From an uncultured Acidobacteriaceae bacterium (lineage in GTDB: Bacteria; Acidobacteriota; Terriglobia; Terriglobales; Acidobacteriaceae): a DNA stretch of 64,000 nt. The notes under the pieces were generated by a model. It was not told the origin of the DNA. It saw only the letters and a program-made list of their open reading frames with translations, and ran no database searches. The stretch spans positions 2,133,263 to 2,197,262 of the forward strand of contig CAWCEA010000003.1 of assembly GCA_963794455.1 (NCBI GenBank), given 5' to 3'. Shown one piece after another: positions 2,498 to 31,353 of the stretch (positions are counted from its first letter, which is position 1; each line of letters begins with the position of its first letter). Made by a program: the position numbers and the translations under genes.

Positions 2498-2606
2498 ATC
2501 GCGGCAGCCCGCGGCTGAGACGTTTCGGTCCGCGTTGTGAAACCGTCACAGGCAGAGCCAATCAGACGCAGCGGTTTGACGAGTATCCTAATACGGAAGT
2601 TGGCCG

Positions 2607-11800: not shown

Positions 11801-12736
11801 TCATGGGTGCAGGGCGTTGCCCATCATCAAGGCAAATAACAATGGAAGATAGATGACTGTGGCCTGCAGAACGTGGCGTGCGCGCATTTTCGAAGCGGCG
11901 GTTGCCAGTGGCAGCTTCAGAAACGCCAGTCGAATTCCGAAATACAAAAGCGCAAAGCCGAGCACGATCGCGCCTACCAGGTAAATCCTTCCAGCCATGC
12001 CCATGAAACTGGGAAGCAGGCTGATAGGGATCAATGCAATCGAGTAGATCAAAATCCTGCGAGCGGTCGAGCGTCCATCCTCTTCGACAACCGGCAGCAT
12101 CCGAACTCCGCCGTTCGCGTAGTCCTCGCGATAGAGCCACGCAATGGAGAAGAAGTGCGGGAACTGCCATACGAAGAGAATGGCGAACAACACCAGCGTG
12201 CCCCATTCGAGATGGCCGCGAGCCGCGGTCCAGCCCAGAACTCCGGGCATCGCTCCAGGAAAGGCGCCAACAAATGTGCACACAGGGGAAACGCGCTTCA
12301 ACGGAGTGTAAGCAGCCAAATAAACGACTGCCGTCAGGAACGTCAGCACTCCCGTCAGAGGATTCGTAAAGACTGCCAGATAGATCGATCCGCCAATCGC
12401 CGCCAGCAGCCCTACGGCAGTGGCATGAAACAAGCTCATGCGGCCAGTCGGAAGGGGGCGCAATGCGGTCCGGCGCATGTGGGCATCGACATCGTGCTCC
12501 ATGACTTCGTTCAAAGCCGCGGTGCCGCTCGATGCCAGGCCAATCCCCAGCAGAGAATGAAACAATCCCCAACTGAACCATGAAACGCCGGCCTTATGCG
12601 CTCCGAAGAAATATCCGCACCAAGCGGTCATCACAATCAACGACGTGACCCGGAGCTTCGTCAGTTCGGCGTAATCGCGGAGAAGGGAAGTCGCCCGTGT
12701 GCGGAAGGCAGAAAGAGGCAATGTCATCGTGCTCAT
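11801..12736 (-). CDS. ctaB: protohaem IX farnesyltransferase (haem O synthase), copy 1
   Basis: UbiA-family polytopic protein with YAELTKLRVTSLIVMTAWCGY, NEVMEHDVDAHMRRT and WQFPHFFSIAWLYREDY. Confidence 0.85.
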   Translation of the reverse strand: MSTMTLPLSAFRTRATSLLRDYAELTKLRVTSLIVMTAWCGYFFGAHKAGVSWFSWGLFHSLLGIGLASSGTAALNEVMEHDVDAHMRRTALRPLPTGRMSLFHATAVGLLAAIGGSIYLAVFTNPLTGVLTFLTAVVYLAAYTPLKRVSPVCTFVGAFPGAMPGVLGWTAARGHLEWGTLVLFAILFVWQFPHFFSIAWLYREDYANGGVRMLPVVEEDGRSTARRILIYSIALIPISLLPSFMGMAGRIYLVGAIVLGFALLYFGIRLAFLKLPLATAASKMRARHVLQATVIYLPLLFALMMGNALHP

Positions 12737-12926: not shown

Positions 12927-14321
12927 CTATTGACTTGCTGCAGGCCCCGCCGCGTCAAACGTCTCCGGAGGATCGAAGAAACATTTGTGCCAGAGCGCGG
13001 AATCGGTCAGAGTTCCTGCTTTCCACTGCTGCAGCATTTCGAATGTCGCGGCAATCATGCCGCCGTCGGCGGAATCAAAAATCACTACCACTCCTGCCAA
13101 CTCCTGAGGCTTCTGGGCCAACTCTGTGTAGCCTTTGTCGAAAAGAGATTTTGCATACTCGAGACGCTGCTTCGGTCCAGCATCTTTCGCGTTCTCGTCA
13201 ACTTTTTGCACGGAGATGATCTTCACATTCTTTCCCCGCAGCGGCGCCCAATCTCCCGGAAATTGCGCGGTTTCCTCGCGCTCCACGTGGAACATATCGG
13301 CGGCCGGCAACTGCGCGGCTGCCGTGGGAATATCGGTGTCGGGGATGCCATCGGGCATCTCAACGCTGTCGCGCCAAATCCAACCTCGCGATAATCCAGA
13401 AATACGCACGTGCACCCAGTCCCGGTTGAAATCCAGCATTTCGAACTCATCGTGCATGCTGGCGAGAAACTCCGGTTTCGCTGTCAGGCTTGGAGTTGCA
13501 ACCACCGGCGTCCCGGATTTCTTCACGGCGACAAGATTCTTGGGATGACCCTGGTTCTTGAGGATTTCTTCCAGCGTTTCAACTTCGGTCTGCAGATTGG
13601 TGTCCCGCTTGTCCGCGTTCGGTTGCTCCGCGATTTGCCGGCTGGCGCGCTCCTGTTCCGCCAGGCTCTTGTTCATCGACGAGGAAATCGCCTGATCTAC
13701 ATCGGGGCGACTGGGCGTCGGAGACGACTTTTTTGTTTCACTGTTCGCGGTCGTCGCGGCGGAGGGCTTGGTGGTTGACGGTTTAACAGGTGGGGTCGGA
13801 GGAGCGGACGGTGAACTCTCGCTAGCACCTTTGGCCACCGGCTCTGCCTTAGCTAATCGATCTGCAAGTTGATCCAACAAGTCAGATTCGAGTCGGCCAT
13901 TCGACGGCAGCAACTGGTATCCCGAACGTGATGCGACGGGATCGTTGTACCATGCAGTCACCTTCACCGCGATGTGGACCAGCGATCCACCCGACGCGGT
14001 CGCGCTAACCTCGGCTGTCGCCTGATAGAACCCGCGCTGATACCGGTCAAGGGGATGTTCGGCAGTATCGGCAAATCCATCGAGGACCGGGAGATGGCCA
14101 GACATGCTCCCCGACAAGGTCTTCAATGCTCTTTCGACGGTCGCTTTCGATTGCGGAAAAGCGCGTTCCGAGGGGCCAATCTGTGCAGAAAGGCACGGAA
14201 CGGTGAGAAGAAGAGTAAGAACAACAGATACGAGGGATGCGACGACCCAGAAGCGATGCTCGATTGGCGGTCTCAAAATCCGTATTCTCAAAATCCAGGG
14301 TTCAGGAATCCAGGCTTTCAT
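12927..14321 (-). CDS. secreted protein with Pro/Ser/Thr/Ala-rich linker and C-terminal SH3b-like segment
   Basis: Signal or anchor segment, low-complexity linker (SSPSAPPTPPVKPSTTKPSAATTA), then DWVHVRISGLSRGWIWRDSV. The start overlaps the upstream gene's stop by 4 nt. Confidence 0.55.
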   Translation of the reverse strand: MKAWIPEPWILRIRILRPPIEHRFWVVASLVSVVLTLLLTVPCLSAQIGPSERAFPQSKATVERALKTLSGSMSGHLPVLDGFADTAEHPLDRYQRGFYQATAEVSATASGGSLVHIAVKVTAWYNDPVASRSGYQLLPSNGRLESDLLDQLADRLAKAEPVAKGASESSPSAPPTPPVKPSTTKPSAATTANSETKKSSPTPSRPDVDQAISSSMNKSLAEQERASRQIAEQPNADKRDTNLQTEVETLEEILKNQGHPKNLVAVKKSGTPVVATPSLTAKPEFLASMHDEFEMLDFNRDWVHVRISGLSRGWIWRDSVEMPDGIPDTDIPTAAAQLPAADMFHVEREETAQFPGDWAPLRGKNVKIISVQKVDENAKDAGPKQRLEYAKSLFDKGYTELAQKPQELAGVVVIFDSADGGMIAATFEMLQQWKAGTLTDSALWHKCFFDPPETFDAAGPAASQ

Positions 14322-15362
14322 GGTACCTGCTCAAGCTCGTCGCGCAACATCCATCCGTGCTGTCCCTCGTGTGTCTCCACTCCGAGCCAATAAGGCGTCG
14401 AAATGACAATCAGGACGTCAGTTCCGGCGGTAAGAGATTGCAAAGTGCTGGCGGTGTGAAACGGAGCGGACTTGAGCGGAGCCCCGGGTGCCTTTACCCG
14501 CCGTTCCACCTGCAACCGAAGTTTCTTCACCCGCTCCTCGATCGTTTCTGGGGGTCCATTTTCTGGGCTGCCGATCGCCGGCGCACCGGCACTGCTGGAG
14601 TCATCCGGCGCCGCTTGCACGGCAGGAGGTGGGAGTGCTTGCGCGGTAGACGTCGGCGCCGCTGCCTCTTTTATCGGAGCGGACGAGGACTGGCCGGGCT
14701 CTTGCTTTTTCCTCCCCAGTTCAGCTTTTTCCTTTTTTTCCTTCTCAGCTTCTACAGTCTCAGCTTTCATCGACTCGATGGCATCAAGCCGGTCGTGGAT
14801 ATCTTTGTATTCGGCGCCTTCAACCGAACCATTGGAGAGATGCCTAACGCGACGGAAATCCTCAACAAATACAGCATCAATGTGTAAGACCGTATTTTTC
14901 TCGCCTTGCGGCTGAAGCACGTAGCGGACCGCCAGCGTCCCTACGTCTCCGCTGTCCTTGAAATTTCGTGGGTCCAGCGCGTGCAGCCGTACTTTATAAA
15001 AGACTTTGCCGCCTTCGTTCCATTCCTTGAATGCATGGGTAGAGTTGGCTGAAACGGCTCCTCCAACGTACTCGTCCTCTGTTGTATTCCTTGGTGCCCC
15101 GGATGATGCCGTTTTGAACCACTTCCTCGACGACCTGCTCGACTTCGTTCTCAGGAAGAGGAATACTGACGGTCAGCCCGGCTCCGTAGCTGGCAGTATC
15201 TTTCTCGCGCCCAAAGAGCGGTAGAGCTGACATCGCAAGCATCAGGACTAAGCAGGCGCCAGTGCGACAGCTCTGCGCTAAGCCCACCCGGGAAGCACAC
15301 TTTATCCTGGCGAACCCCACGAACTTGGAACTGCACCTCGGAGGCGGCACCTGTTTTCTCAT
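14318..15362 (-). pseudogene. secreted SH3b-like paralogue, split by a +1 frameshift near 15075..15090
   Basis: ORF 14994..15362 supplies the signal peptide and the N-terminus up to GIIRGTKEYN. The frame of ORF 14318..14920 is open upstream (EDEYVGGAVSANSTHAFKEWNEGGKVFYKVRLHALDPRNFKD...) with no start codon, so the two pieces join. Confidence 0.55.
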
Positions 15363-15496
15363 CTTCGCAAGAAAGACTCTCAGCTCTGGCCTTGGCTGTC
15401 AACTTAGGATTCGTTTCCAAGATACTGAATGGCCAGATAGAACATGAGTTGGACGTGACCTTGTAAAAAAAATGTAAAAAAATTATATTTTCCACC

Positions 15497-15526
15497 TTGC
15501 AAGTTGCTCTTGACCGGTAGTAGGAT
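15497..15526 (+). promoter_or_regulatory. candidate sigma70-type promoter of the respiratory cluster
   Basis: TTGCAA-N18-TAGGAT preceded by two A-tracts (TGTAAAAAAAA TGTAAAAAAA, 15462..15482) that could act as an UP element. Judged by eye only. Confidence 0.25.
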
Positions 15527-15719
15527 CGAAAACCGGTAAGGTGGTAGGACCGTTCATGGGAAAAAAGCTGGACACTTTGCCGCCAAAGCAAACATGTGGA
15601 GGGGTTCACGTGGATTGCTTCTCTTAGTCGGTTGCTTTCGTCGTTGTCTCGTCTGCCTTGTCTTTGCATTGCGTGGGAAATGCAAGTTGTTCAAAACAAG
15701 AATTGCTGAGGAGTCCGGC

Positions 15720-17129
15720 ATGCACATTGGGACGCGGTCTAGCCTTTGTGGGAAGCTGCCGTGGATGCAAGTTGTTGCAACCACGGCTCTGGTAGTGATC
15801 TTTTTGATCTTGAGTACCAGTCAGCGTGCGAACGCCCTCCCGGCTTTTGCCCGCAAGTATGGTCTGCGCTGTTCAGCCTGCCACGAATCTTGGCCGATGT
15901 TGAACTACTTCGGTCAGAAGTTTAAAGACAACGGATACCAGCTCATGAATGATCGGGATTCCCCGATCTGGCAGAATCCAGGCTATTGGCCTGTCACCTT
16001 CCGCATTACTCCCTTTTGGAGCCGCGAAAGCACCAACAAGGTCGCTACCGACACCGCTCCCAGTGGTGAACAAAAAATCACGACAACCGGCTTCAATCTC
16101 AGTGGGTTGGACATTTTGACCGGCGGCACCCTTGAGAAGAACATTTCGTTCCTCCTGGTGCCTTCGGCTGACGAAACCGGCGCATTTCACTTCGAGTCGG
16201 TCAATGTTCGCTTTGACAACCTGTTGAACAGTCCCTGGTTGAACGTCAAAGTGGGCAAATTTGAGCTGGACAATATCATTTCGGAGAAGAGGATCCTCAC
16301 CATCTCGGCGAATAGTGGCGGTTTTCAGCTCTACCACTTCATCCCGGTCAATGACGGCAATATCTTCGGCCAGATTGGCGACAACCAACTCGGTGCCGAA
16401 TGGATGGGGCACTCCTTGAACGACCGTACTCGGCTGTCTGCGGCCGTGTTTAGTTCCGTGGATGGCAACGTGGATCTGCCTTACGGCCAGAACTCCTACA
16501 CGGCGTTCTTTGCCGGCAGCCAGGCCTTCGATGCCGGTAAGCTGGGCGTGGAGCGCATCGGCGGCTACGCCATGGTCGGCCAGGCCCCAACCACCTACCT
16601 GACCCAGGGAGGCGTCCCGCTGCCGGGATCCGGCATTGGGAACAAGAGTTTCAGCCGGTATGGTTTCACCGGGCTGTTCTACGTCACCAACAAGCTTGAT
16701 TTCCAGGTGTACACCCAACACGGTGAGGACAGCGCCTGGTTTGGGGCTTGCTACGGAGACATCATCGACGGAGCCACCCCTTGTAGCAACAACAATACCG
16801 GCGGTGCGACCCTCCCGGCGGGAGCGCGCAATCCTACATGGAATGGCGCATTCGTCGAGACGCACTACATTTTCAGCCCTCAGCTTATCTTTATCCAACG
16901 CTCCGAATGGGTCCGCATGTCTCAACAGGCATTGCCGGGGGTCCCTTCGAACCTCGGCGACATCGACAACTATGTGATCGGGTACCGCTATAACCCGTTT
17001 ATGACCAGCCGCGCCGGCTTCGCTTTCCACAACGAGTATGCGTGGCTACGGCAGCGGGGGACGTCGCCGGTAACCGGAACCGACTTGACTTCGAGCAGTC
17101 TGATGCTCGGTTTTGATTTCGACTTCTAG
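15720..17129 (+). CDS. fused monohaem cytochrome c / outer-membrane beta-barrel porin (Cyc2-like)
   Basis: ATG 15720 follows a GAGGAG Shine-Dalgarno. Signal peptide ends in ANA|LP. A single CxxCH (CSACH, 15870..15884) sits 12 residues after the predicted cleavage site. About 400 aa of alternating beta-strand-like sequence follow, ending in the OMP-type terminus GFDFDF. Confidence 0.7.
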   Translation: MHIGTRSSLCGKLPWMQVVATTALVVIFLILSTSQRANALPAFARKYGLRCSACHESWPMLNYFGQKFKDNGYQLMNDRDSPIWQNPGYWPVTFRITPFWSRESTNKVATDTAPSGEQKITTTGFNLSGLDILTGGTLEKNISFLLVPSADETGAFHFESVNVRFDNLLNSPWLNVKVGKFELDNIISEKRILTISANSGGFQLYHFIPVNDGNIFGQIGDNQLGAEWMGHSLNDRTRLSAAVFSSVDGNVDLPYGQNSYTAFFAGSQAFDAGKLGVERIGGYAMVGQAPTTYLTQGGVPLPGSGIGNKSFSRYGFTGLFYVTNKLDFQVYTQHGEDSAWFGACYGDIIDGATPCSNNNTGGATLPAGARNPTWNGAFVETHYIFSPQLIFIQRSEWVRMSQQALPGVPSNLGDIDNYVIGYRYNPFMTSRAGFAFHNEYAWLRQRGTSPVTGTDLTSSSLMLGFDFDF

Positions 17130-17141
17130 AAAGGAACACAC

Positions 17142-18008
17142 ATGCGGACAAGATTGCAGAAGTGGTCGCTTCAGATTGGCGCAGCTGCGGTTTTGGTGTT
17201 CCCGTTGGCTGCCCACGCGCAACTCACAACGGCGCAAATTGAGTCGCGCATCGGCACGGAAAGCCACATCGGCAACGTGACCGGCCATGCCAAGGATGGC
17301 GCGCCCGGTTACCGCCGCTATTGCGTTGGCTGCCACGGCGATTTAGGCGACGGCAACGGCGAGAACGCCCCTTGGGTTGATCCCAAGCCCCGGGATTTCC
17401 AGTTGGGAGTTTTCAAGTGCCGCTCGACTCCGACCGGAACCTTGCCCACGGACGAAGATCTGTTTGATACCATCGGGCGCGGTCTGGATCGGTCGAACAT
17501 GCCGCAATGGAGCACCTTCTCCAATCAAGAGCGTGCTGATTTGGTGGCATGGGTCAAACACTTCTCGCCACGATTTGTGAGTGAGAAGCCTGGAGCGCCG
17601 ATCACGATTCCTCCCGAGCCCGAGGTGACTGCAGAACGAATCAAGGCCGGCAGGGAAGTATTCGCACACGTACAGTGCTGGAAATGCCACGGCGTTGAAG
17701 GCAAAGCCAATGGCCCGTCGGCCGCTACTCTCACTGACGATCTCGGGCGGCCGATTCTGCCCTTTAACTTCACTGAAGGTGCCCGCCCCAAGTGCGGTTC
17801 CACCGATCAGGACCTCTACCGGATCTTCATGACCGGCCTGGACGGCACTCCAATGCCGTCCTTTGCCGACAACATCAAGCCCGACGAGGCTTGGGATCTC
17901 GTTTTCTACCTGAAAACCTTGGAACCTCAGCGGAGCAAAGAGAAAGAGATGGCGAAACAGCTTGGGCTGAAGCCGGTCGATCCGAATGCTCCCGCGGGCC
18001 AACAATAG
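17142..18008 (+). CDS. periplasmic dihaem c-type cytochrome
   Basis: Signal peptide and two CxxCH sites (CVGCH, CWKCH), each followed by a G-rich class-I cytochrome c context. Begins 12 nt after the upstream gene. Confidence 0.85.
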   Translation: MRTRLQKWSLQIGAAAVLVFPLAAHAQLTTAQIESRIGTESHIGNVTGHAKDGAPGYRRYCVGCHGDLGDGNGENAPWVDPKPRDFQLGVFKCRSTPTGTLPTDEDLFDTIGRGLDRSNMPQWSTFSNQERADLVAWVKHFSPRFVSEKPGAPITIPPEPEVTAERIKAGREVFAHVQCWKCHGVEGKANGPSAATLTDDLGRPILPFNFTEGARPKCGSTDQDLYRIFMTGLDGTPMPSFADNIKPDEAWDLVFYLKTLEPQRSKEKEMAKQLGLKPVDPNAPAGQQ

Positions 18009-18083
18009 ATTAACGATGAACAACCATCGCGCGGAGTTGGAGCGGGTCGCCAACTCCGCCGGTCGTACGGAGGATCTTCTCTT

Positions 18084-18830
18084 ATGAATAACCGATTCAA
18101 GCAAGCGTCCATGGCAGTACTATCCGCGCTAGTTCTTGTCAGCTGCGGTGCGTTGCTTCTCGGCCGGCAGGTCAGCGCGGCCGCAGAAGGCAAGATCACG
18201 GGCAGCGTGAAACTCAACGGAACGGCTCCGCACATGAAGGGCATCGACATGTCCAAGGACCCGTATTGCGTAAAGGCCAATCCCACGCCGGTACACCTTC
18301 AAACAGTGGAGGTTGGACAGGGCAACGGCTTGGAGAACGTCGTTCTCTACATCTCCGAAGGTTTGCCCGCCAGCGCCCTCAGTGAAGTTCCAACTACGAT
18401 CCCTGTGTTCGATCAAAAGAACTGCATGTATACCCCGCACGTGCTGGCGATGGACGTCAACCAGAAGTTTAAGGTTGAAACCAGCGATCAGACCGCTCAC
18501 AATATCCATCCGCTCCCCAACCCGATGACGGGCAACATCCCGTGGAATCAGTCGCAGCCGCCGGGCGCTCCTCCCATCGAAAAAAGCTGGAAGGCGACCG
18601 AAATGATCCCCGTCCAGTGCAACATTCATCCCTGGATGCATGGATGGTTTGTCGTAGTGAAAGGACCCTACGCGACCACCGATGCGAACGGCTCCTACAC
18701 CATCAACAACGTGCCACCGGGAAACTACACGGTGACTGCGTGGCAAGAGGATTACGGAACTCAAACTCAGAAGGTGACTGTGGCTGGCGGCCAATCCGCG
18801 ACCGCTGACTTCACCTTCAAGGCGAAATAG
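18084..18830 (+). CDS. type-1 copper cupredoxin-like protein flanked by CarboxypepD_reg-like beta-sandwich segments
   Basis: Signal peptide, upstream His (TAHNIH) and a Cys-x2-His-x2-Met loop (CNIHPWM), the same spacing as the amicyanin CTPHPFM loop. C-terminal GSYTINNVPPGNYTVTAW motif. Confidence 0.65.
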   Translation: MNNRFKQASMAVLSALVLVSCGALLLGRQVSAAAEGKITGSVKLNGTAPHMKGIDMSKDPYCVKANPTPVHLQTVEVGQGNGLENVVLYISEGLPASALSEVPTTIPVFDQKNCMYTPHVLAMDVNQKFKVETSDQTAHNIHPLPNPMTGNIPWNQSQPPGAPPIEKSWKATEMIPVQCNIHPWMHGWFVVVKGPYATTDANGSYTINNVPPGNYTVTAWQEDYGTQTQKVTVAGGQSATADFTFKAK

Positions 18831-18852
18831 AGATTTCTCCTCAACTTAATCG

Positions 18853-18876
18853 GCCGCCACGCAGTCGAGTGGCGGC
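18853..18876 (+). other. intercistronic hairpin between the cupredoxin gene and coxB
   Basis: GCCGCCAC-(8 nt)-GTGGCGGC is a perfect 8-bp stem with no clear U-tract. Possible attenuator or processing site. Confidence 0.3.
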
Positions 18877-18921
18877 TCTCCTAATTCGGGCTGTTCGGAA
18901 CAACCGCAAGCGAGGGCGTCA

Positions 18922-19725
18922 ATGGCGAAGTTCTTTGCAGTCACCATCGTTTTGATTGCGATTGCATCTGCGATTCCTATCGTGATGCATACCTGGCCTA
19001 CGCCGCAGGACATCTCCACTCACGGCGTACTGATTGACGAGCAGACGAACGAGACCATGTTGGAAGCGGGCATTTCGTTCCTGGTCTCGCAATTCATTCT
19101 CGCCTTCTTCATCTGGAAATTCTCCAGTTGGGGCCCCAACAACAAGCTGAAGACATTCCCCGGCGGAGCGAAGGCGATGGTTTGGGCGGCCTTCCTGCTG
19201 GTGGGCACCGAAGTCTTGGCTCTCGGAGTCTTCGGCGTCAAGGCGTGGGCGAACGTTTACCTCACGCCCCCTGCGGCCAACGCCCTCCCCGTACAGGTGC
19301 AGGCTGGACAATTCGCTTTCTACTTCCGCTATCCGGGTCCCGACGGCAAGTTCGGTTTTCTTCATCCGGAGATGATTAACGAAGCTTCCGAGAATTTCTT
19401 CGGAATCGACCAGACCAACGACCCCGCCGCAAAGGATGACATCGTCACTGCGGAGATGGCTATTCCAGTGAACCGCGAGATCCATCTGCTCATGCATTCC
19501 AAAGACGTCGGGCACTCGTTCTTTGTGCCGGAGTTGCGGGTTCAGCAGGACTTCGTCCCCGGTCTGGATTTGTCGGTACACTTCACCGCAACCAAGATCG
19601 GTCGCTACGAGATTGTCTGTACTCAGCTTTGTGGTTTGGGACACTACAACATGAAGGCATACCTCAGTGTGCTGTCCCAGCAAGACTACGATGACTGGCT
19701 CAAGAAGCAGGCTGCTCTGCAGTAG
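18922..19725 (+). CDS. coxB: cytochrome c oxidase subunit II (CuA, no fused cytochrome c domain)
   Basis: Two N-terminal TM helices and a complete CuA site: GHSF ... CTQLCGLGHYNM (C-x3-C-x3-H-x2-M). Confidence 0.9.
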   Translation: MAKFFAVTIVLIAIASAIPIVMHTWPTPQDISTHGVLIDEQTNETMLEAGISFLVSQFILAFFIWKFSSWGPNNKLKTFPGGAKAMVWAAFLLVGTEVLALGVFGVKAWANVYLTPPAANALPVQVQAGQFAFYFRYPGPDGKFGFLHPEMINEASENFFGIDQTNDPAAKDDIVTAEMAIPVNREIHLLMHSKDVGHSFFVPELRVQQDFVPGLDLSVHFTATKIGRYEIVCTQLCGLGHYNMKAYLSVLSQQDYDDWLKKQAALQ

Positions 19726-19779
19726 GTAGCAGATTTCGGTCGTTAATCACTGACGAATCACATTTCTCCGAGGTCGACC

Positions 19780-21564
19780 ATGCACGATACGTCTGCACAC
19801 GCAGTACATCACGCGCCTCCGACGAGCTTTATCGCCAAGCACGTCTTCAGCCTCGACCACAAGGTGATCGGAAAGCAGTATTACGGCATGGCTTTGATCG
19901 CCGCCTTCGTAGGTATGTTCCTCTCCTGGCTGATGCGCATTCACCTCGGTTGGACCAACGCCGCCATCCCCGGGCTGCAGCTGCTTTCCAAGACCGGAGC
20001 GCCCGGCGGCGTGATGACGCCCGAGTACTACCTGCAGCTCATGACCATGCACGCGACCATCATGGTCTTCTTTGTGCTGACCACGGCTCCCTTCGCGGCG
20101 TTCGGCAACTACTTTCTGCCGATCCAGGTCGGCGCGGAAGACATGCCTTTCCCGCACTTCAACATGATGTCGTTCTGGGTCACCTTCAGCGGATTCCTGG
20201 TGCTGATGTCGTCGTTCTTTGTGGCTGACGGGCCCACTCTGGGTGGCTGGACGCAATATGCCCCTCTAAGCGCCGTCGGCGCAGTCTCTGGTCCTGGACA
20301 GGGCACTGGCGTCATCTTGTGGGCGATTGCCATCGGCTTGTTCTGTGTCGGCCAGTTATTCGGCTCGCTGAACTTCATCACCACTACTCTCGACATGCGT
20401 ACCAAAGGCATGAGCATGTGGCGCCTGCCGTTAACCGTATGGGGCTGGTTCATCACCTCGATCATGGGCCTCACGGCTTTCGCAGTCCTGATGCCGGCCT
20501 GTATTCTGCTCATCCTCGACCATGTGGCCGGCACCAGCTTCTTTGTGCCCGCCGGTCTGGTGTTCAATGGCCAGCTCCAGCCGCACTCCGGCGGTTCGAC
20601 GCTTCTCTGGCAGCACCTGTTCTGGTTCTTCGGACATCCGGAGGTCTATATCGCGATCGTGCCCGGAATGGGGATTGTTTCCCACGTTCTGACGACGTCC
20701 ATGCGTAAGCCGTTGTTGAGTCATCGCGTCATGGTTTACGCCATGGGTTCGTTGGCCGTCCTCAGCTATATGGTCTATGGCCACCATATGTTCGTCAGCG
20801 GCATGAATCCGGTATCGTCGCTCGTGTTTTCCTTCCCGACACTCATCATCACCATTCCTTCAACGATTGTCGTTTTGATCTGGGTGGGAAGTTTGTACGG
20901 ATCGAGGCTGCGGATCAACTCCGCGTCGCTCTTTGCCCTGGGATTCATCTCGATGTTCATTAGCGGCGGGATCAGCGGATTCTTTTTGGCTCAGCCCTCC
21001 ATCGACATCATGCTGCACGCCACCTACTTCGTGGTCGGTCACTTCCACCTCGTGATGGCGGTGGCGGCGATGTTCGGCATCTTCGCCGGAACCTACTTCT
21101 GGTTCCCCAAGATGTTCGGCCGGATGATGAGCGAGCCCCTGGGCAAACTTCATTTCTGGTTGAGTTTCGTCGGCGCCTACTGCATCTTCATGCCGTTCCA
21201 CTACCTGGGATTGGCCGGCAACGTCCGCCGCTATCAGGCGTTCACCGATGATTACCTGCAGCCGCTGCTTCCGCTGCACAAGTTCATCACCGTCGCAGCC
21301 ATCGTCACTGGAGCGGCTCAGCTCATCTTCTTGTACAACCTGATCTATAGCCGGTTCTGGGGCAAGCCTGCACCCGACAATCCGTGGGAGGCGACGTCGC
21401 TGGAGTGGAGCACTCCTTCGTCTCCGCCGCCGTTCGATAATTTTGGCGGCACATTCCCCGAAGTCCATCATGACCCATACCAGTACGGCGTCGAAGGCGC
21501 TTCGGCCGACTACGTGATGCAGACTTCGCCAGAGGTGCTCAAGAGCGGGCACGACGAGTCTTAA
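19780..21564 (+). CDS. coxA: cytochrome c oxidase subunit I (A-family haem-copper oxidase)
   Basis: 594 aa with WFFGHPEVYIAIVPGMG, GHHMFVSGM and HFHLVMA signatures. Confidence 0.95.
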   Translation: MHDTSAHAVHHAPPTSFIAKHVFSLDHKVIGKQYYGMALIAAFVGMFLSWLMRIHLGWTNAAIPGLQLLSKTGAPGGVMTPEYYLQLMTMHATIMVFFVLTTAPFAAFGNYFLPIQVGAEDMPFPHFNMMSFWVTFSGFLVLMSSFFVADGPTLGGWTQYAPLSAVGAVSGPGQGTGVILWAIAIGLFCVGQLFGSLNFITTTLDMRTKGMSMWRLPLTVWGWFITSIMGLTAFAVLMPACILLILDHVAGTSFFVPAGLVFNGQLQPHSGGSTLLWQHLFWFFGHPEVYIAIVPGMGIVSHVLTTSMRKPLLSHRVMVYAMGSLAVLSYMVYGHHMFVSGMNPVSSLVFSFPTLIITIPSTIVVLIWVGSLYGSRLRINSASLFALGFISMFISGGISGFFLAQPSIDIMLHATYFVVGHFHLVMAVAAMFGIFAGTYFWFPKMFGRMMSEPLGKLHFWLSFVGAYCIFMPFHYLGLAGNVRRYQAFTDDYLQPLLPLHKFITVAAIVTGAAQLIFLYNLIYSRFWGKPAPDNPWEATSLEWSTPSSPPPFDNFGGTFPEVHHDPYQYGVEGASADYVMQTSPEVLKSGHDES

Positions 21565-21610
21565 GTCGCGACCGGTCAGCCCGAAACGGTAAACGAAAGC
21601 GGTTATCTTT

Positions 21611-22285
21611 ATGGCAACTACAGTTCACGAACCACCAAAATCCGGAATGGGCGCGGAGTTTCCGCTGCGGCCGAGCAATACTGGCGGCGGAAGCACCCTG
21701 ACTCCCTCTGGCGGAGATCTGCGGGCAGTGAAGAAGTATTCGCCGCCTCCCGCTTCCACCGGAATTTGGGTTGTGTTGGCCTCGATCACGATGAGCTTTC
21801 TGGCATTCACCAGCGCTCTCGTGGTGCGCCAAGGCTCGGGCTTGGACTGGCAACACCTGACTCTTCCCCCGATCCTTTATTTCAATACGCTGCTGTTAAT
21901 AGGCAGCAGTGTTGCGCTCGAAGTGGGCCGGCGCCAGGTTCGCGGATTCATGACCGCGAAGACTCTGGTCGCGAATCCGGCTCGCTGGCTGTACGTCGCG
22001 CTGTTTCTCGGCATGCTGTTTGTGGCTGGGCAGTTTACGGCGTGGTTGCAACTGCGCGCGCAGGGACTTTACCTGGCCACCAATCCCAACGCTTCGTTTT
22101 TTTACGTGCTTACCGTAATGCATGCATTGCACGTTTTCGGCGGCCTGGGTGGATTGACTCGAGTGATTCTCAAGCTGAAGCATTCGACCCTGCGCAAGAG
22201 CACGCTGGATGCGACCTCCCATTACTGGCATTTTATGGATGGTCTTTGGATCTTTTTGTTGTGGTTGTTGTGGTCGCGATTGTAA
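21611..22285 (+). CDS. coxC: cytochrome c oxidase subunit III family protein
   Basis: Five-TM subunit III pattern ending in HYWHFMDGLWIFLLWLLW. Confidence 0.85.
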   Translation: MATTVHEPPKSGMGAEFPLRPSNTGGGSTLTPSGGDLRAVKKYSPPPASTGIWVVLASITMSFLAFTSALVVRQGSGLDWQHLTLPPILYFNTLLLIGSSVALEVGRRQVRGFMTAKTLVANPARWLYVALFLGMLFVAGQFTAWLQLRAQGLYLATNPNASFFYVLTVMHALHVFGGLGGLTRVILKLKHSTLRKSTLDATSHYWHFMDGLWIFLLWLLWSRL

Positions 22286-22324
22286 CCCTGAAGCTGTAGC
22301 ACAACGAGCAGTCTAGGAGGCGAC

Positions 22325-22942
22325 TTGAGCTACGCCAGTCTACATGTACACGGACACGCCGCGGATGGAGTTCCGCCCGCGTTTGCCATTCCCGCCAAGA
22401 AAATGGCGATGTGGCTATTCATCATTGCCGATTCGGCTACCTTTGCCGCTTGTCTGGTCGCCTACGGTTTTCTCCGCATCTCCGATCCCCATTGGCCGCG
22501 ACCGTTCCATAGCATTACGAATGTGGCCGTCATGACCCTCATCTTGGTGACCAGCAGCCTCACGATGCTGCTTGGGATCGACGCGGCCAAGGCCGGCAAC
22601 AAAGCCAAAGCTTTCCGATGGACCATGATCACAGCGGTCTTCGGGATTCTCTTCGCCATCCTGCACATTCGTGAGTGGCTTGGCCTGATCGACGAAGGCA
22701 TGCGCATGTTCCAGAATCCCTGGGGCTCGGCTTTGTTCGGTGCATCCTTCTTCAGCATCACGGGTCTGCACCTCTTACACGTTACCTCCGGAGTCATCGC
22801 ACTCATCGTGGTGGGCATTCGCTTTCAGGGCGGCCGCTACAACTCCGATGACCTGGAAATCACCGGCCTTTACTGGCACTTTGTCGACCTCGTGTGGATG
22901 TTCGTTGTGCCGCTGGTCTATCTTTTGAACTTCTCCCGCTGA
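22325..22942 (+). CDS. second cytochrome c oxidase subunit III family protein
   Basis: TTG start 5 nt after an AGGAGG Shine-Dalgarno. ITGLHLLHVTSGV and GLYWHFVDLVWMFVVPLVY. Confidence 0.8.
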   Translation: MSYASLHVHGHAADGVPPAFAIPAKKMAMWLFIIADSATFAACLVAYGFLRISDPHWPRPFHSITNVAVMTLILVTSSLTMLLGIDAAKAGNKAKAFRWTMITAVFGILFAILHIREWLGLIDEGMRMFQNPWGSALFGASFFSITGLHLLHVTSGVIALIVVGIRFQGGRYNSDDLEITGLYWHFVDLVWMFVVPLVYLLNFSR

Positions 22943-22978
22943 TTTTTGCCCGGAGAGACTACGTTAGGAGAATGAATC

Positions 22979-23290
22979 ATGGCAACGGCCGAACAACATC
23001 AAAGCAGCATCGGGAAATACCTCGTCGTCTACGTTTGCATTCTGGTGATTGCCGGACTGCAATTTGTAGTCGCCTACTCGAATGTCGATGGATCCCAGAT
23101 GTTGACCCGCATGCTCATTCTGGCGTGTGCGGAGGCGCTTCTGGCGGTCTTGTTCTTCATGCATCTGTGGGTGGAAAGTCGTGGGCTCCTCTGGTTTGTG
23201 GCAATCTTCACGTTATTCGTGCTCTTCGCCATGCAATACAGTTGGACCGATAGCCTCAGGCTGCTCAACGGCGTACCCTGGGCAAGGTAG
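22979..23290 (+). CDS. coxD: cytochrome c oxidase subunit IV (prokaryotic COX4 family)
   Basis: 103 aa with three TM segments, YLVVYVCILVIAGLQFVVAY and EALLAVLFFMHL. Confidence 0.7.
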   Translation: MATAEQHQSSIGKYLVVYVCILVIAGLQFVVAYSNVDGSQMLTRMLILACAEALLAVLFFMHLWVESRGLLWFVAIFTLFVLFAMQYSWTDSLRLLNGVPWAR

Positions 23291-23334
23291 AATCGGAACC
23301 GGCAATGTTCCGAAGGTAGAGAGGTAGGAGAAAA

Positions 23335-23610
23335 ATGAGAGCTCACAGGTCGCTACGATGGATGGGCCTCTTGTTCGCTGGCCTGGTCTTGTTTTTGGCG
23401 CCGCTGCCGCTGTTCTCGCAGAATTGCGCGCTTTGCTACACGCAGGCCGCTTCTGCCGGCGGTCGGATGATCCAGGCCCTGCGCAGCGGAATTCTCATCC
23501 TTATCATTCCTCCTACCTTCATGTCAGTTGGACTGATCTTTGTCGTCTTTCGCAAAAATAATCAGGTCCGCCACACCGATGACAATGGCGATTCCGGACA
23601 AGACTGGTAA
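23335..23610 (+). CDS. small membrane protein with CxxC motif, oxidase-operon-embedded
   Basis: 91 aa. Signal or TM segment followed by QNCALCY, a second TM, and an acidic tail. The stop is 1 nt before the ctaB start. Confidence 0.5.
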   Translation: MRAHRSLRWMGLLFAGLVLFLAPLPLFSQNCALCYTQAASAGGRMIQALRSGILILIIPPTFMSVGLIFVVFRKNNQVRHTDDNGDSGQDW

Positions 23611-23611
23611 A

Positions 23612-24511
23612 ATGGCCTCTGCACACGTGATGGATACCCGGGTTTCACCGCTGACGCTGAAGTCCAAACTTCGGGACTACTACACCCTTACCAAGCCCGA
23701 AGTGAACCTGCTGATCTTGATGACAACGTCGGCGGGATACTATTTGGCTTCCCGCGGCCCCTTCCACATCGTTGGCCTGGTCAACACTCTCGTAGGAACT
23801 TTGCTGGTCGCCAGCGGCACCGCGACTCTGAATCAATGGTACGAGCGCCGCTGGGATGGCCAGATGTTGCGGACCGCCTCGCGTCCCTTGCCGGCAGGGC
23901 GCTTGAGCGCTCGCGAAGCTTTTTGGTTTGGAATGCTGCTCAGCATCGCCGGGGGCATCTATCTCGCTGTCGCTGTGAACGGACTGGCGGCCCTTCTGGC
24001 GGTTTCGACGTTGCTCTCCTACCTCTTGGTTTACACCCCACTCAAGCGCAAGACGCCGCTCTGCACCATGTTGGGCGCCATCCCCGGCGCCATGCCTACA
24101 CTCATCGGCTGGGCCGGCGCTGCAGGGGCAATCGACCGCAACGCATGGTTCCTCTTCGCCGTCCTCTTTCTGTGGCAGTTCCCGCATTTCCTGGCCATTG
24201 CGCTCATGTATCGCGATGACTACGCCCGCGCGGGTTACCGGATGTTGCCACACTTCGATCTCGACTCGCGCTTCACTCGCGCTGAGATTCTAGGTTTCAC
24301 AGTCGTCCTGATCTTGACGACGCTCTTGCCGCTTGCCGGTCACGTTGGCCCGGTGTATCTCTCGGTGGTGTCTCTGGCGAGCGTGTACCTGCTCTATCAC
24401 GTAGGCAAGCTGATGAAGTCCACCTCGAAGGTCATGGCCAGCCGGGTGGTGCATGCTTCCGTCCTTTATCTACCAGTTGTGCTCGTGATGATGATTGTCT
24501 GCAAGGCCTAA
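23612..24511 (+). CDS. ctaB: protohaem IX farnesyltransferase (haem O synthase), copy 2
   Basis: Start trimmed to ATG 23612 (MASAHVMDTRV...). YYTLTKPEVNLLILMTT, NQWYERRWDGQMLRT and WQFPHFLAIALMYRDDY. Confidence 0.85.
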   Translation: MASAHVMDTRVSPLTLKSKLRDYYTLTKPEVNLLILMTTSAGYYLASRGPFHIVGLVNTLVGTLLVASGTATLNQWYERRWDGQMLRTASRPLPAGRLSAREAFWFGMLLSIAGGIYLAVAVNGLAALLAVSTLLSYLLVYTPLKRKTPLCTMLGAIPGAMPTLIGWAGAAGAIDRNAWFLFAVLFLWQFPHFLAIALMYRDDYARAGYRMLPHFDLDSRFTRAEILGFTVVLILTTLLPLAGHVGPVYLSVVSLASVYLLYHVGKLMKSTSKVMASRVVHASVLYLPVVLVMMIVCKA

Positions 24512-24637
24512 ACGTCCGGAGACCGCGGTTTCGGTTCATGGGCTGGACTCATTGCATGCCGAGTCTAACCCGCACGCGTTCCCTTCGAATCAGAGTCGAC
24601 CATCGACGACCGACTCCGGGGTCAGTTGAGACTCGAA

Positions 24638-25825
24638 ATGCGACAGAAACTTGGATTTGCCCTCTCGATCATGCTGGTCGGCTGCATTATTCTAGGGACC
24701 CGTTATTACGAGGTGGACCTTCCCGTATGGCACTTCCTCGGCGGCGGCAAAGGACTGGACCCCATCTCGTTGCACCTGGCCGGCGAGTTCGTCGAGAGCA
24801 ATCTGGGCACGGCTGAAAACCCAGATGGCTCGTTCACCGTGCGCATGATCGCGCAGCAATATCTCTTCGTGCCGCAATGCGTCGTTGTTCCTGCCGGTGT
24901 GCCCGTGCAATTTCGAATCACTAGCGCGGACGTTTCTCACTCATTCAATATCACCGGCACTCACGACTCCATAAAAGTAGTCCCTGGCACGGTCAGCACG
25001 GCCACCTTTACGTTCTCAACGCCCGGTGACTTCGACGCGCCCTGCAACGAATTTTGCGGCGCCGGACACTTCGCCATGCGCGGCCATCTGAGAGTAGTTC
25101 CGGCGGGCCAATTCGCTGCCTTGCGCGGTGACGAGAGGAGGAGTTGTGATTCTTCGTCCGTTCGCATTCCCTCCAACGTCGAATGGACTCCTGCAACCAT
25201 CCACCAGGCTTCCAGTGGAGATGCGTTTCGCGGATTGTTGATCGCGCGGCGATGCGACCACTGTCACGGAGCTGAAGGCTTCAGTGCTGAGCCCATGATT
25301 CCGAACCTTGCCGGCATGGATCGGCTGTCGGTTTGGAAACAGCTGGAAGATTTTCGCTCGGGTAAGCGCCTGTCGCGAATGATGCAACCGATCGCAGCCC
25401 AACTCCCGGCTCAGGATGTTGTGGATGTTGCAGCTTACTATTCAATGCTCCCGACCGCTCCCGATCCACAGGACAACCGGTCGTTTCCTCAAGCCATGCT
25501 CGATCCGGAGAAAGCGCGGATGGCCGAGGATTTGATCGTCTTCGGAGACGGGCACCGCGGCATCCCGCCCTGTCAGGCGTGTCATGGTCCCGTCGGCTAC
25601 CTGAAGGGCGCGCCTCCTCTCATCCCGCAGAACGGCGATTACCTGCTTACGCAGTTGAAGCATTTCACGGACGGCAGTCGTACCAACGATATCGATGTCG
25701 TAATGCGCAGCATCGCGAAGCAGTTAACCGATGAAGAAAAGGCCGCAGTCTCCGAGTACTACGGCGCAGGCCGTGGACCTGCGGCAGGAACGCCCCACCC
25801 TGCCGGAGTTCCCGTGCAGCACTGA
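24638..25825 (+). CDS. CuA-cupredoxin (oxidase subunit II-like, single TM) fused to a dihaem cytochrome c4-like domain
   Basis: One TM, then SHSF ... CNEFCGAGHFAM (full CuA ligand set, ba3-type spacing). Two CxxCH sites follow (CDHCH, CQACH). No cognate subunit I gene is adjacent. Confidence 0.75.
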   Translation: MRQKLGFALSIMLVGCIILGTRYYEVDLPVWHFLGGGKGLDPISLHLAGEFVESNLGTAENPDGSFTVRMIAQQYLFVPQCVVVPAGVPVQFRITSADVSHSFNITGTHDSIKVVPGTVSTATFTFSTPGDFDAPCNEFCGAGHFAMRGHLRVVPAGQFAALRGDERRSCDSSSVRIPSNVEWTPATIHQASSGDAFRGLLIARRCDHCHGAEGFSAEPMIPNLAGMDRLSVWKQLEDFRSGKRLSRMMQPIAAQLPAQDVVDVAAYYSMLPTAPDPQDNRSFPQAMLDPEKARMAEDLIVFGDGHRGIPPCQACHGPVGYLKGAPPLIPQNGDYLLTQLKHFTDGSRTNDIDVVMRSIAKQLTDEEKAAVSEYYGAGRGPAAGTPHPAGVPVQH

Positions 25826-28944: not shown

Positions 28945-31353
28945 TTGATTACAATAGGAGTTTCGTCCGGCTACCCTTACCGGAGCCGTAGAGGGAAGAG
29001 GGACGATCAGCTTTTGGAAGAGACAAACCACAATTCCAGTCCGGCCCCCAGCGTTTACTGGCGGGTCGAAGGCAGCCTTCTCGACCTGACCGTCGTGGAG
29101 CCGGTGGCGTTCTTTACCTGGAACGCCCAGACCTTCGCTGAGCGCTTCCGGCGGCGCGGCCTCATCTTCTTAATGGCACTGCTCCGGCCATTTCTTTACT
29201 CCACGAATCGCAAGTTCGCCACGCGCGTGGTGCACACCGTTTTGCGCGGAGTTACCCGCGACCGCCTCGACCTGCTCGGCGAAGAATATTTCCAATATAA
29301 ATTGAAGCCGCGTCTGAAGCTGAGCGGCGTCGAGAAAGTACAGGAACTTGTCCGCTCCGGCGCCGAGGTCATTCTGGTCAGCCAGGGCTTGGAGCACGTC
29401 ATGCGTCCTCTAGCCCAGCATTTGGGAGTGAAGCGCATAGTGGCGAACCGCCTCGACTTCCGCGACGGCACCGCGACCGGCAGACTGCTCGAGCCCGTGA
29501 TTCGTCCGCGCGGCGCCTTTGCCCTCATTCGCGAGCAGAATCCAGACGGACGAAAAGCTCCGAAGACGTTGGCGCGGCATCTCGATATTTCTGTCGAAGA
29601 GCTTCGTTCCGCGGTCATCCCGGCGGAGCGGCAGGTCGCTGCACCCGCGCAGCCCATCGTTCACTTCGACGGTCAGCGCCAAGCACCTGGATTTTCCGTT
29701 CGCCGCGCATTCTCCGGCAAGCACGTGATGCTGGTCGGAGTCACCGGATTCATCGGCAAAGTCTGGCTCGCAAATACGCTTCTGGACTTGCCCGATGTGA
29801 AGCGGATCTATCTGCTAATCCGCAGGCAGAAGTCGAATCCCGCGGAACGGCGTTTCGAAAAGATGCTGGAAGAGTCGCCCGTCTTCGACCCGCTCTTCGA
29901 AAAGCACGGCGACGCCCTCGCCGACTTCCTGCGCGAGAAAGTCGAAGTCGTTGAAGGCGACGTAACCCAGCCCGGCCTCGGCCTTGTGCCCGACACAGCT
30001 CGCCGCCTGCAGAAGAATCTCGACCTGATCGTCAATAGCTCGGGATTGACCGATTTCAATCCCGACTTGCGCGACGCGCTCACCACCAACACCGACGCGC
30101 CGCTCAATATCCTCGAATTTGTACGCACTTCCGACCACGCCAGCCTGCTGCATCTTTCCACTTGCTACGTAGCTGGAGAGCAGGATGGGCGCGTCGGAGA
30201 GAAACTGGTCCAGAACTACAATCCGCGCGGCTTAGCCGACTTCGACGCCGATCGCGAATGGAATGCTCTGCACGAGTTAGTCCGCCAGGCCGACGCGCAA
30301 TCCGAGAGCGAAGAAGTCACCTCCGGCCTCCGTATGCAGGCAATGGCCAAAGAACACGCGGCGAAAGGCTTGCAGGGCGCGGCTCTCGACAATCAGATTC
30401 GCAAAAACCGCGTCCGCTGGTTGAAGACCTACCTCACCGAGGCCGGGACTCGCCGCGCCAAAGAACTCGGTTGGCCCAACACCTACACGCTCACCAAGAG
30501 TCTTGCCGAATCGCTCATCGCGAAACGTGGCGCCGGACTGCCCGTCGCGGTCGTTCGTCCCGCGATCGTCGAAACCTCCGTCGACAAGCCCTTTCGCGGA
30601 TGGAATGAAGGCATCAATACCTCCGCCTCGCTTTCCTATCTGCTCGGAACCTATTTCCGCCAGTTGCCTTCGAACGAAAGCAAGCGCCTCGACATCATTC
30701 CCGTAGACGCAGTTTGCGGCGGGATGACTTTGATCGCCGCCGCCCTCATGGAACGCCGGCACGATCCGCTCTACCAGCTCGCTACCTCTGTGACCAACCC
30801 GTGCGATATGGGACGCTCCATCGAGTTGACCTCGCTCGCTCACCGCAAGCACTATCGCGCGCAGGAGGGGCTGGAATCATGGCTGCGCCTGCGTTTTGAC
30901 GCGATTCCCGTTTCCAAGACTCGCTACAACCGCATGTCGGCCCCGGCGCAGAAGGCAATCGTAAAATCGATTCAGCGCATCATGTCGCCGCTGCCCTTGA
31001 AGAAAGCGCCGCTGGTTAAGACCGAGCGCAGTCTGGAACGTCTGGAAAAACTCATCGAACTGTTCGAGCCCTTCATCCTGCTCCACGAACATGACTTCGC
31101 CGCTGAGAATATCGAGAAGCTTTCGTACGCGCTTGTGCCGGAAGAAAAATCCACCTTCGCCTACGACACACGCTCGCTCGACTGGTGGGAATACTGGATC
31201 AACATTCACATCCCGGCCCTGCGCCGCTGGACTTATCCTTTGATTGAAGGGCGGCCGCTCGAAGCGCGGCCTCCCCGCAACTTTCAACTCGCCCCCGCGA
31301 ATGGAGACGCCGTGAAGACCGGCACCAATGGAGCAACGTGGCGATATTCCTGA
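28945..31353 (+). CDS. HAD-IB-like domain fused to fatty acyl-CoA/ACP reductase (NAD_binding_4 / male-sterility type)
   Basis: N-terminal ~230 aa are HAD-IB-like. They are followed by [15 protein letters not shown] (GxTGFxG Rossmann), [20 protein letters not shown] and a FAR C-terminal domain. The start is TTG 28945 or TTG 29014. Confidence 0.7.

Follow-up and report, generated by a model that had tools for sequence, protein, structure and literature searches.

A conserved operon of Terriglobia predicted to link a Cyc2-family cytochrome-porin to an aa3-type terminal oxidase

In Acidithiobacillus ferrooxidans, the rus operon has been studied experimentally and runs in the order cyc2-cyc1-cup-coxBACD-rus-ctaT-ctaB-ctaA (PMC10654088). 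The Cyc2 protein of M. ferrooxydans PV-1 oxidises Fe(II) and has a midpoint potential (Em) of +208 mV (PMC8406198). Keffer et al. 2021 recognise Cyc2 proteins by a signal peptide, one CxxCH motif and the sequence AxPxFAR[Q/K][T/Y] just upstream of it, and further by PxL, placed four residues downstream, by a minimum length of 365 amino acids and by a 16-strand porin (PMC8406198). In a sequence-network study, Cyc572 of Leptospirillum was derived from a cluster of homologues of Acidobacteria and Nitrospira. Acidobacterial Cyc2/Cyc572 homologues have already been mentioned (PMC10654088), and FeGenie surveys label metagenome-assembled genomes (MAGs) of Acidobacteriota as putative Fe oxidisers (PMC13594681). 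Here we analysed a stretch of 64,000 nucleotides (nt) from an uncultured Acidobacteriaceae bacterium, called the window below and numbered throughout from its first letter. Between positions 15720 and 25825 it contains a cluster of genes for a predicted Cyc2-family cytochrome-porin, electron carriers and an aa3-type oxidase. We propose, with a probability of roughly 0.6, that this operon, which is conserved in Terriglobia, specifies a route for electrons, most probably fed by Fe(II), that leads from the outer membrane to the terminal oxidase.

An open reading frame (ORF) check of the window placed 11 co-directional ORFs, all on the + strand, in the region 15720-25825. The gaps between them are 12, 75, 91, 54, 46, 39, 36, 44, 1 and 126 nt, figures that assume ATG starts at 23612 for ctaB and at 24638 for the last gene. 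Number, direction and spacing are those given in the first-pass annotation of this DNA, and most of the domains it had assigned to the single ORFs were found again with Pfam and NCBIfam. The eleven genes are:

15720..17129, + strand: gene 1, predicted Cyc2-family fused monohaem cytochrome c-porin of 469 amino acids (motif and profile homology)
17142..18008, + strand: gene 2, predicted periplasmic dihaem cytochrome c of 288 amino acids (Pfam Cytochrome_CBB3 / Cytochrom_C, Sec signal peptide)
18084..18830, + strand: gene 3, predicted amicyanin-like type-1 cupredoxin inside a CarboxypepD_reg domain (profile match, invariant ligands)
18922..19725, + strand: gene 4, coxB, aa3 oxidase subunit II with two transmembrane helices and a CuA site (Pfam COX2; TIGR02866, E 3e-33)
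19780..21564, + strand: gene 5, coxA, A-family haem-copper oxidase subunit I (Pfam COX1, E 8e-125)
21611..22285, + strand: gene 6, coxC-like subunit III paralogue 1, 224 amino acids (Pfam COX3, E 2.9e-5; NF050119, E 8e-21)
22325..22942, + strand: gene 7, coxC subunit III paralogue 2, 205 amino acids (Pfam COX3, E 4.6e-12; TIGR02842, E 8e-27)
22979..23290, + strand: gene 8, coxD, subunit IV, 103 amino acids (Pfam COX4_pro, E 7e-8)
23335..23610, + strand: gene 9, small conserved membrane protein of 91 amino acids (signal peptide, CALC motif, one transmembrane helix)
23612..24511, + strand: gene 10, ctaB/cyoE-type haem O synthase of the UbiA family (Pfam UbiA, E 2e-54; the ORF opens at 23540 and its start was taken as the ATG at 23612)
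24638..25825, + strand: gene 11, fusion of a single-transmembrane CuA (COX2-like) domain and a dihaem cytochrome c (Pfam COX2 and Cytochrome_CBB3, two CxxCH; the ORF opens at 24626 and its start was taken as the ATG at 24638)

Gene 1 carries the published marks of the Cyc2 family. Its signal peptide, judged by eye from the hydrophobic stretch, ends at ANA/LP, and the sequence from the cleavage site reads ANA/LPAFARKYGLRCSACHESWPML. The only CxxCH lies at residue 51 behind the signal peptide, in the string ALPAFARKY-GLR-CSACH-ESW-PML, which contains both AxPxFAR[Q/K][T/Y] and PxL, and the length of 469 amino acids lies above the published minimum. The protein ends in LMLGFDFDF, a typical outer-membrane beta-signal. 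Searches of gene 1 against Pfam and NCBIfam returned no family match, and profile searches of the PDB with the gene 1 family returned none either. An exhaustive HMMER search gave 2,292 representatives of this family at E <= 1e-3, and the motif is kept by every full-length distant homologue (30+), down to 27% identity. When PLSDB was searched with tblastn, genes of Ralstonia, Caballeronia, Paraburkholderia and Methylocystis matched gene 1 with E-values down to 8e-8, the best match (on a Methylocystis plasmid, E 8e-8) covering residues 25-170. These proteobacterial matches carry xPxFARQTGxxCxxCH...PEL with the spacing found in gene 1, and the neighbours of their genes encode a c-type cytochrome or a HiPIP.

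The acidobacterial family was also aligned with hhalign to the Ralstonia, Caballeronia and Methylocystis proteins, which are Cyc2-like by their motif and by the mention of Ralstonia/Burkholderia homologues in PMC8406198 rather than biochemically tested proteins. The match (probability 98.7%, E 1.9e-16) spans 278 columns and extends well into the predicted barrel part. Two members of the gene 1 family were placed, one of 35% identity in Nitrospiria and one of 53% identity in Candidatus (Ca.) Acidoferrales, which agrees with the published link between Leptospirillum Cyc572 and homologues of Acidobacteria and Nitrospira. A protein identical to gene 1 is also present in a metagenome assembly. On the motif criteria of the literature and on its profile homology, gene 1 is a predicted member of the Cyc2 family, which bears out the parallel with cyc2 that the first-pass annotation had drawn.

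Relatives of the locus were found by scanning one genome per GTDB species with an alignment of 8 sequences, and at least 577 species-level genomes contained one. The best 80 genomes are all Terriglobia MAGs except for one labelled Ca. Eisenbacteria, and the nearest named relatives are MAGs of Ca. Sulfotelmatobacter, Acidobacteriaceae and Terriglobales. Synteny was studied by tblastn of all window proteins against about 80 related loci and judged where the loci were long enough. In most of these, two genes on the - strand, upA and upB, lie next to the divergent series cyc2-dihaem c-cupredoxin-coxB-coxA-coxC1-coxC2-coxD-small protein-[ctaB]-[MBL]. A survey of the gene neighbourhoods of homologues had been proposed as a check on the cluster, and its outcome is a strongly conserved synteny in most of the roughly 80 loci. 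The same operon is found in Ca. Acidoferrales with a single coxC, paralogue 1 being missing. Across at least two orders, conservation of the operon is vertical.

More distant lineages show other arrangements. In a lineage with 35% identity to gene 1 the order is cyc2-dihaem c-COX3-COX4-small-COX2-COX1-COX3-cytochrome c, while in one with 31% identity the cox genes come first and cyc2-dihaem c last, and SCO1 and a protein with CarboxypepD_reg are encoded next to them. Where identity is 39%, only cyc2 and a fusion of the dihaem cytochrome c with OmpA are present, and three further distant cyc2 homologues stand alone. The pair of cyc2 and the dihaem cytochrome gene is thus joined to cox operons in differing orders, which suggests functional coupling and not inherited adjacency. 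Since three gene orders show this linkage, chance adjacency was rejected. We regard the cyc2-dihaem pair, as far as gene order can tell, as the core of the system.

Gene 2 has its CxxCH motifs at residues 61 and 179. Its best match in the PDB was chain B of 6H5L from Kuenenia stuttgartiensis (E 1.3e-56 over 214 residues), in which both haem motifs are aligned. This chain is annotated as a Kuenenia 'conserved hypothetical cytochrome', and we take it to be the dihaem redox partner of a Kuenenia octahaem hydroxylamine-oxidoreductase-like enzyme, a periplasmic protein dedicated to exchanging electrons with it. No c4/Cyc1-type structure was found among the five PDB matches at E <= 0.01. Against the NCBIfam model for cytochrome579 (NF033864), gene 2 scored 49 bits, a domain-level likeness only, and as the cutoff lies far above this, at 280 bits, an equivalog of Leptospirillum cytochrome 579 was rejected. 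A dihaem cytochrome gene comes after the cyc2 homologue in most contexts inspected, distant ones included; three distant cyc2 homologues have no such neighbour. In the 39%-identical lineage (L004, 11318-12520, and L005, 4337-5539; L numbers denote related loci), the dihaem cytochrome following cyc2 is fused to an OmpA domain. This peptidoglycan-binding domain would anchor the cytochrome beneath the outer membrane, and there are no cox genes nearby.

The third gene encodes a protein with an N-terminal signal peptide or anchor and an unusual nested architecture. A cupredoxin domain (about residues 100-193) is inserted in a CarboxypepD_reg domain, a transthyretin-like fold, so that the latter consists of an N-terminal strand and the C-terminal 50 residues (Pfam 196-245) around an insert of about 100 residues. 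The putative copper ligands H139, C179, H182 and M185 are invariant in 32 orthologues and are kept in paralogues and in a distant orthologue (locus L006). C62, C114 and H142 are likewise invariant in the 32 orthologues. Single-sequence searches of Pfam and the PDB found CarboxypepD_reg only and no cupredoxin, and a BLASTP comparison with an approximate amicyanin sequence aligned only the 14-residue ligand loop. A profile that included the paralogues and the distant orthologue matched amicyanin along 85 columns (E 2e-5 to 6e-5) and brought the four ligands into register. Further matches of this profile were to nitrite reductase and CuA domains, and it gave no match to rusticyanin or AcoP/Cup structures. 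In the AlphaFold (AF2) model of gene 3 only the CarboxypepD_reg part is confident and the insert is of low confidence, and Foldseek matches are to prealbumin-like folds only. By the profile match, gene 3 is rightly called an amicyanin-like cupredoxin and is a predicted copper carrier, and the amicyanin-like, not rusticyanin, loop described in the first-pass annotation is confirmed.

Relatives of gene 3 occur in other settings. A paralogous family of about 270 amino acids has the same nested architecture, with a C-x3-H-x2-M loop and an insertion of about 25 residues in the C-terminal domain, and its members lie within 10 kb of the operon in 12 loci (L039, L045, L046, L049, L057, L066, L074, L077-L079, L082 and L083). 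The distant orthologue, 28% identical to gene 3, lies in a distant locus. In the 31%-identical lineage (P0312 contig, 1997-3348, - strand) a CarboxypepD_reg protein of 224 amino acids is encoded beside SCO1, a CuA-assembly chaperone, upstream of cox-cyc2. This neighbourhood hints that some proteins of the nested-cupredoxin family may deliver copper and not transfer electrons.

Genes 4-8 are predicted to encode an A-family aa3 oxidase with a full set of catalytic residues. CoxB contains the CuA site H...CTQLCGLGHYNM (pattern H...CxxxCxxxHxxM) and has no cytochrome c domain. As it lacks its own haem c domain, external electron donors would be needed. Aligned to mycobacterial and Paracoccus CtaD, CoxA shows the HPEVY, HH and HFH motifs as well as the Asp and Asn of the D-channel. 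At about residue 363, in helix VIII, the canonical lysine of the K-pathway is replaced by Val ('ipstIVvliw' versus 'vptgIKffnw' of 7RH6), and V, I, M or L stands at this point in every one of the approximately 75 operon-linked CoxA orthologues as well as in the distant locus L006. In the literature we found nothing specific describing A-family oxidases without the K-lysine. The 91-amino-acid membrane protein, which matched nothing in the family libraries, follows coxD in nearly all related loci.

These genes suggest the following path. The Cyc2-type porin would take an electron from a small reductant entering its pore, most probably dissolved Fe(II), and would pass it to the soluble periplasmic dihaem cytochrome c. 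From there the electron would go to the amicyanin-like blue-copper protein and on to the CuA site of the aa3 oxidase, where O2 would be reduced and a proton-motive force built, the haem O synthase of the operon supplying the precursor of haem a. Such a module could supplement the energy supply (lithoheterotrophy), clear away Fe(II) when acidic soil or peat goes through an oxic-anoxic transition, or both, and in a heterotrophic host no 'uphill' branch to NAD would be needed. We infer from the genes the order of the carriers, the donor, the loading with haem and copper, co-transcription and the physiological role. An amicyanin-type centre and a Cyc2 potential like that of PV-1 would fit Fe(II) chemistry under moderately acidic to neutral conditions, and not at pH 2.

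Several observations weigh against this path. The AlphaFold model of gene 1 has a mean confidence (pLDDT) of 32 and, by DSSP, about 15 strands between residues 92 and 468; its alignment is shallow (35 close homologues, 77-88% identical), and the model is unusable for a fold search. The window protein matched no porin family, and within its family one member matched BBP2 (E 3e-4) and another OMP_b-brl (0.019), both weakly. Across the best 80 species-level genomes, among which there is no cultured organism, the porin is 64-88% identical to the window protein. This is unusually conserved for a Cyc2 and may point to a housekeeping function. Among the distant family members there are some that stand alone or have no cox neighbours, and CoxA lacks the K-pathway lysine. 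Cyc2 homologues are also found in many organisms that are not known as Fe oxidisers, for instance Ralstonia and Burkholderia (PMC8406198). Finally, Hausmann et al. 2018 reported for Ca. Sulfotelmatobacter MAGs no dissimilatory iron genes and only 'low-affinity terminal oxidases', so that the oxidase described here may be one of their general oxidases.

The last points lead to the alternative that survives best, although we consider it unlikely. The cluster would be a housekeeping aa3 operon, in which the dihaem cytochrome c and the cupredoxin are ordinary carriers from a quinol:cytochrome c reductase (bc1 or alternative complex III, ACIII) and Cyc2 is an accessory with a non-energetic role, for instance in detoxifying Fe(II), in sensing redox state or iron, or in importing iron. 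A heterotrophic host would suit this explanation, as would the very high conservation of all operon proteins, including the porin, across species and the description of Ca. Sulfotelmatobacter MAGs with 'low-affinity terminal oxidases' only and no iron metabolism. Moreover, a CoxB without a haem c domain needs soluble carriers anyway. However, the cyc2-dihaem pair is joined to cox in three orders across 31-88% identity and also travels without cox, and this suggests that the dihaem cytochrome serves Cyc2 and not bc1. In addition, no bc1 or ACIII genes are adjacent, and the gene order copies that of the dedicated rus operon. The housekeeping explanation is partly compatible with the path proposed above, since the oxidase could take electrons by both routes.

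A donor other than Fe(II), with the chain and its direction unchanged, seems improbable to us. Mn(II), Cu(I) or a small reduced shuttle of organic or humic type could then enter the pore. Even with distant relatives of its own the clade shares only 27-39% identity, so that its specificity could differ; a Cyc2 homologue (Cyc2 cluster 2) is present in the cathode-oxidising Tenderia electrophaga, and a comparative-genomics study of Manganitrophaceae reportedly found Cyc2 homologues in the Mn-oxidising Ca. Manganitrophus. Nothing at the locus, however, points to the handling of Mn or Cu, each of the three Cyc2 proteins that were tested biochemically oxidises Fe(II), and the pore is predicted to be narrow, which favours a hydrated metal ion (PMC8406198). 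An outward conduit, by which electrons would be exported under anoxia to Fe(III) or humics while the cox adjacency is regulatory or historical, is very improbable, because the same operon encodes an O2 reductase together with its haem O synthase, high-potential carriers (class I cytochrome c and type-1 copper) suit O2 reduction and not quinol oxidation, and solids are out of reach for a monohaem Cyc2, which cannot span the membrane (PMC8406198).

The predicted path to oxygen is accompanied by conserved features upstream of cyc2 and by further genes nearby:

15462..15551, + strand: conserved upstream region, candidate promoter/operator (alignment of upstream regions)
12927..14321, - strand: 'upA', 464 amino acids, secreted or anchored, with a low-complexity linker and an SH3-like C-terminus (synteny)
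14318..15242, - strand: 'upB', about 307-316 amino acids in relatives (synteny)
11801..12736, - strand: second UbiA-family (haem O synthase-like) gene (Pfam UbiA, E 6e-49)

A conserved non-coding block spans about 150-260 nt upstream of cyc2. It includes the direct repeat TGTAAAAAAAA/TGTAAAAAAA at 15462-15482, with a spacing of 11 bp. Within 15462-15551 there are also TTGCAA and TAGGAT, separated by 18 nt, and two copies of GGTRGTAGGAYC, at 15516-15527 and 15540-15551, 24 nt apart. Counted with a relaxed regular expression (a strict DNA pattern matched no locus), the TGTAAA repeat was found in 59/89 loci, GTAGTAGGAT in 66/89 and GGTGGTAGGACC in 51/89, and their distances to the ATG of cyc2 are mostly constant, at about -230, -180 and -155, respectively. 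In the window the TGTAAA direct repeat occurs once, with 0 expected by chance. The conservation of these elements at fixed distances suggests a specific regulation of the operon, and we consider the region a candidate promoter with putative regulator-binding sites. A generic scan of the locus gave no terminator or promoter signals above chance, and an Rfam scan of the window gave zero family matches.

The divergent pair upA and upB, which the first-pass annotation had omitted, is conserved beside the operon in most loci of Terriglobales and Acidoferrales. Low-complexity linkers and SH3-like C-termini are common to both proteins; an SH3_3 match was recorded for the Acidoferrales orthologue of upA and is weak for the window protein. 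By frame analysis upB appears frameshifted in the window, with its N-terminal third in another frame, which may be an assembly error or a pseudogene. As for haem O synthase, a downstream ctaB is found at this position in about half of the related loci. Relatives without it usually have the upstream UbiA gene, or the reverse, and the window and a few others carry both.

Gene 11 had been counted as part of the unit in the first-pass annotation, and this does not hold. In tblastn searches it was missing from all 80 best related loci, and it was found after ctaB in only one close relative (L094) and standing alone in L093. The full-length CuA-dihaem fusion is rare (about 15 clusters), while its C-terminal half corresponds to the common 255-amino-acid 'cytochrome c553' of Terriglobia. 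The gene has no adjacent subunit I of its own. A role as core component was rejected on account of its absence from the 80 loci, and by its distribution gene 11 appears to be a rare, lineage-specific addition outside the conserved operon.

At about 58% G+C, the window shows no break in composition where the cluster lies, and no mobile elements were seen flanking the operon. Other genes of the window encode GH31, LacI, an FGGY kinase, GalT, PFK, CstA and glycogen synthase. This context marks the host, as far as it can be judged from genes, as a sugar-using heterotroph, in line with the heterotrophic way of life that the first-pass annotation had taken as a premise. The window of this heterotrophic acidobacterium also carries a gene for cytochrome P460 at 3477-4109 on the - strand (Pfam, E 2.7e-32). 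Cytochrome P460 is a haem protein usually tied to hydroxylamine or nitric oxide chemistry. At 28945-32471 there are genes for a protein with HAD and fatty-acyl-reductase-like (NAD_binding_4 / Sterile) parts and for a second NAD_binding_4 protein, followed by a pyruvyl transferase and AMP-binding enzymes, and the same neighbours are found in the relative locus L094. They possibly form a cluster for the modification of lipids or polysaccharides.

In acidic soils and peatlands, Terriglobia rank with the most abundant bacteria. They are regarded as heterotrophs that degrade polymers, and iron-metabolism genes are given as absent in the founding description of Ca. Sulfotelmatobacter. Only tentatively, and as the less probable side of the question, do we extend the proposal to the dominant Terriglobia of acid soil and peat at large, as facultative aerobic Fe(II) oxidisers (lithoheterotrophs) that use an independently assembled, rus-like supercomplex. 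This extension would cover hundreds of species, with Ca. Sulfotelmatobacter, MAGs of Acidobacteriaceae and Ca. Acidoferrales among them, and the supercomplex would consist of the Cyc2 porin, the Kuenenia-type dihaem cytochrome c, the nested cupredoxin and a clade of aa3 oxidases that works without the K-pathway lysine. If it were true, much of the re-oxidation of Fe(II) in acidic, redox-oscillating soils would be due to 'ordinary' heterotrophs and not to specialist iron bacteria. The operon would let its carriers harvest energy from Fe(II), or detoxify it, when oxygen re-enters waterlogged soil, with a bearing on the cycling of iron, carbon and phosphorus. It would also be a second, independently assembled example of the rus design with different carriers, of use in telling the essential features of chains that run from the outer membrane to an oxidase. 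The oxidase clade without the K-lysine and the cupredoxin within a transthyretin-like domain are of biochemical interest of their own. Literature searches found no description of the operon, its breadth in Terriglobia, the nested cupredoxin, the Kuenenia-type dihaem partner or the oxidase lacking the K-lysine. The module had been called uncharacterised in such a host; this stands insofar as we found no paper on the operon, whereas acidobacterial Cyc2 homologues and putative Fe oxidisers have been published.

Compared with the described members of the Cyc2 family (Keffer clusters 1-3, including Leptospirillum Cyt572), gene 1 likewise has a signal peptide and a lone N-terminal CxxCH with the same motif spacing. 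It also falls within the range of about 430-500 amino acids and has a predicted beta-rich C-terminal part and a terminal aromatic beta-signal. In contrast, the conservation of its porin part among Terriglobia goes far beyond what Cyc2 proteins usually show. In Leptospirillum, the genes for Cyt572 and Cyt579 are not clustered with an oxidase. Gene 2 is homologous to the Kuenenia protein 6H5L_B over 214 residues, but its partners here are presumably the Cyc2 porin and the oxidase. In amicyanin of Paracoccus denitrificans (PDB 1AAC), His53, Cys92, His95 and Met98 pair with H139, C179, H182 and M185 of gene 3, and both share the C-x2-H-x2-M loop. Unlike amicyanin, the domain of gene 3 is nested in CarboxypepD_reg and has an extra conserved Cys pair, C62/C114, and while amicyanin sits with methylamine dehydrogenase, gene 3 sits with an oxidase operon.

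The closest likeness is to the rus operon. The two match position by position, with a Cyc2-family porin, a dihaem cytochrome c, a copper protein, coxBAC(C')D and a haem O synthase, and they share the implied 'downhill' logic from the outer membrane to an aa3 oxidase, which is read here from the genes alone. The parallel drawn in the first-pass annotation was therefore even closer than stated there: it had listed the position of the cupredoxin as a difference, but rus too has a copper protein between cyc1 and coxB, which makes this position a similarity. The differences lie in the parts. The second gene is not of the c4/Cyc1 type, its best PDB relative being 6H5L_B; the copper protein is amicyanin-like (C-x2-H-x2-M), nested in CarboxypepD_reg and without a match to AcoP/Cup; and a rusticyanin gene is absent from the acidobacterial cluster. 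The latter instead has two coxC paralogues and the extra small membrane protein, its CoxA is without the K-pathway lysine, its host is a heterotrophic acidobacterium, and mobile elements do not flank the genes. A transferred rus operon was rejected because the carriers are non-orthologous. The independent assembly suggested in the first-pass annotation fits the non-orthologous dihaem cytochrome and cupredoxin, and these carriers, the absence of flanking mobile elements and the vertical conservation of the operon together make independent assembly of a rus-like module likelier than transfer.

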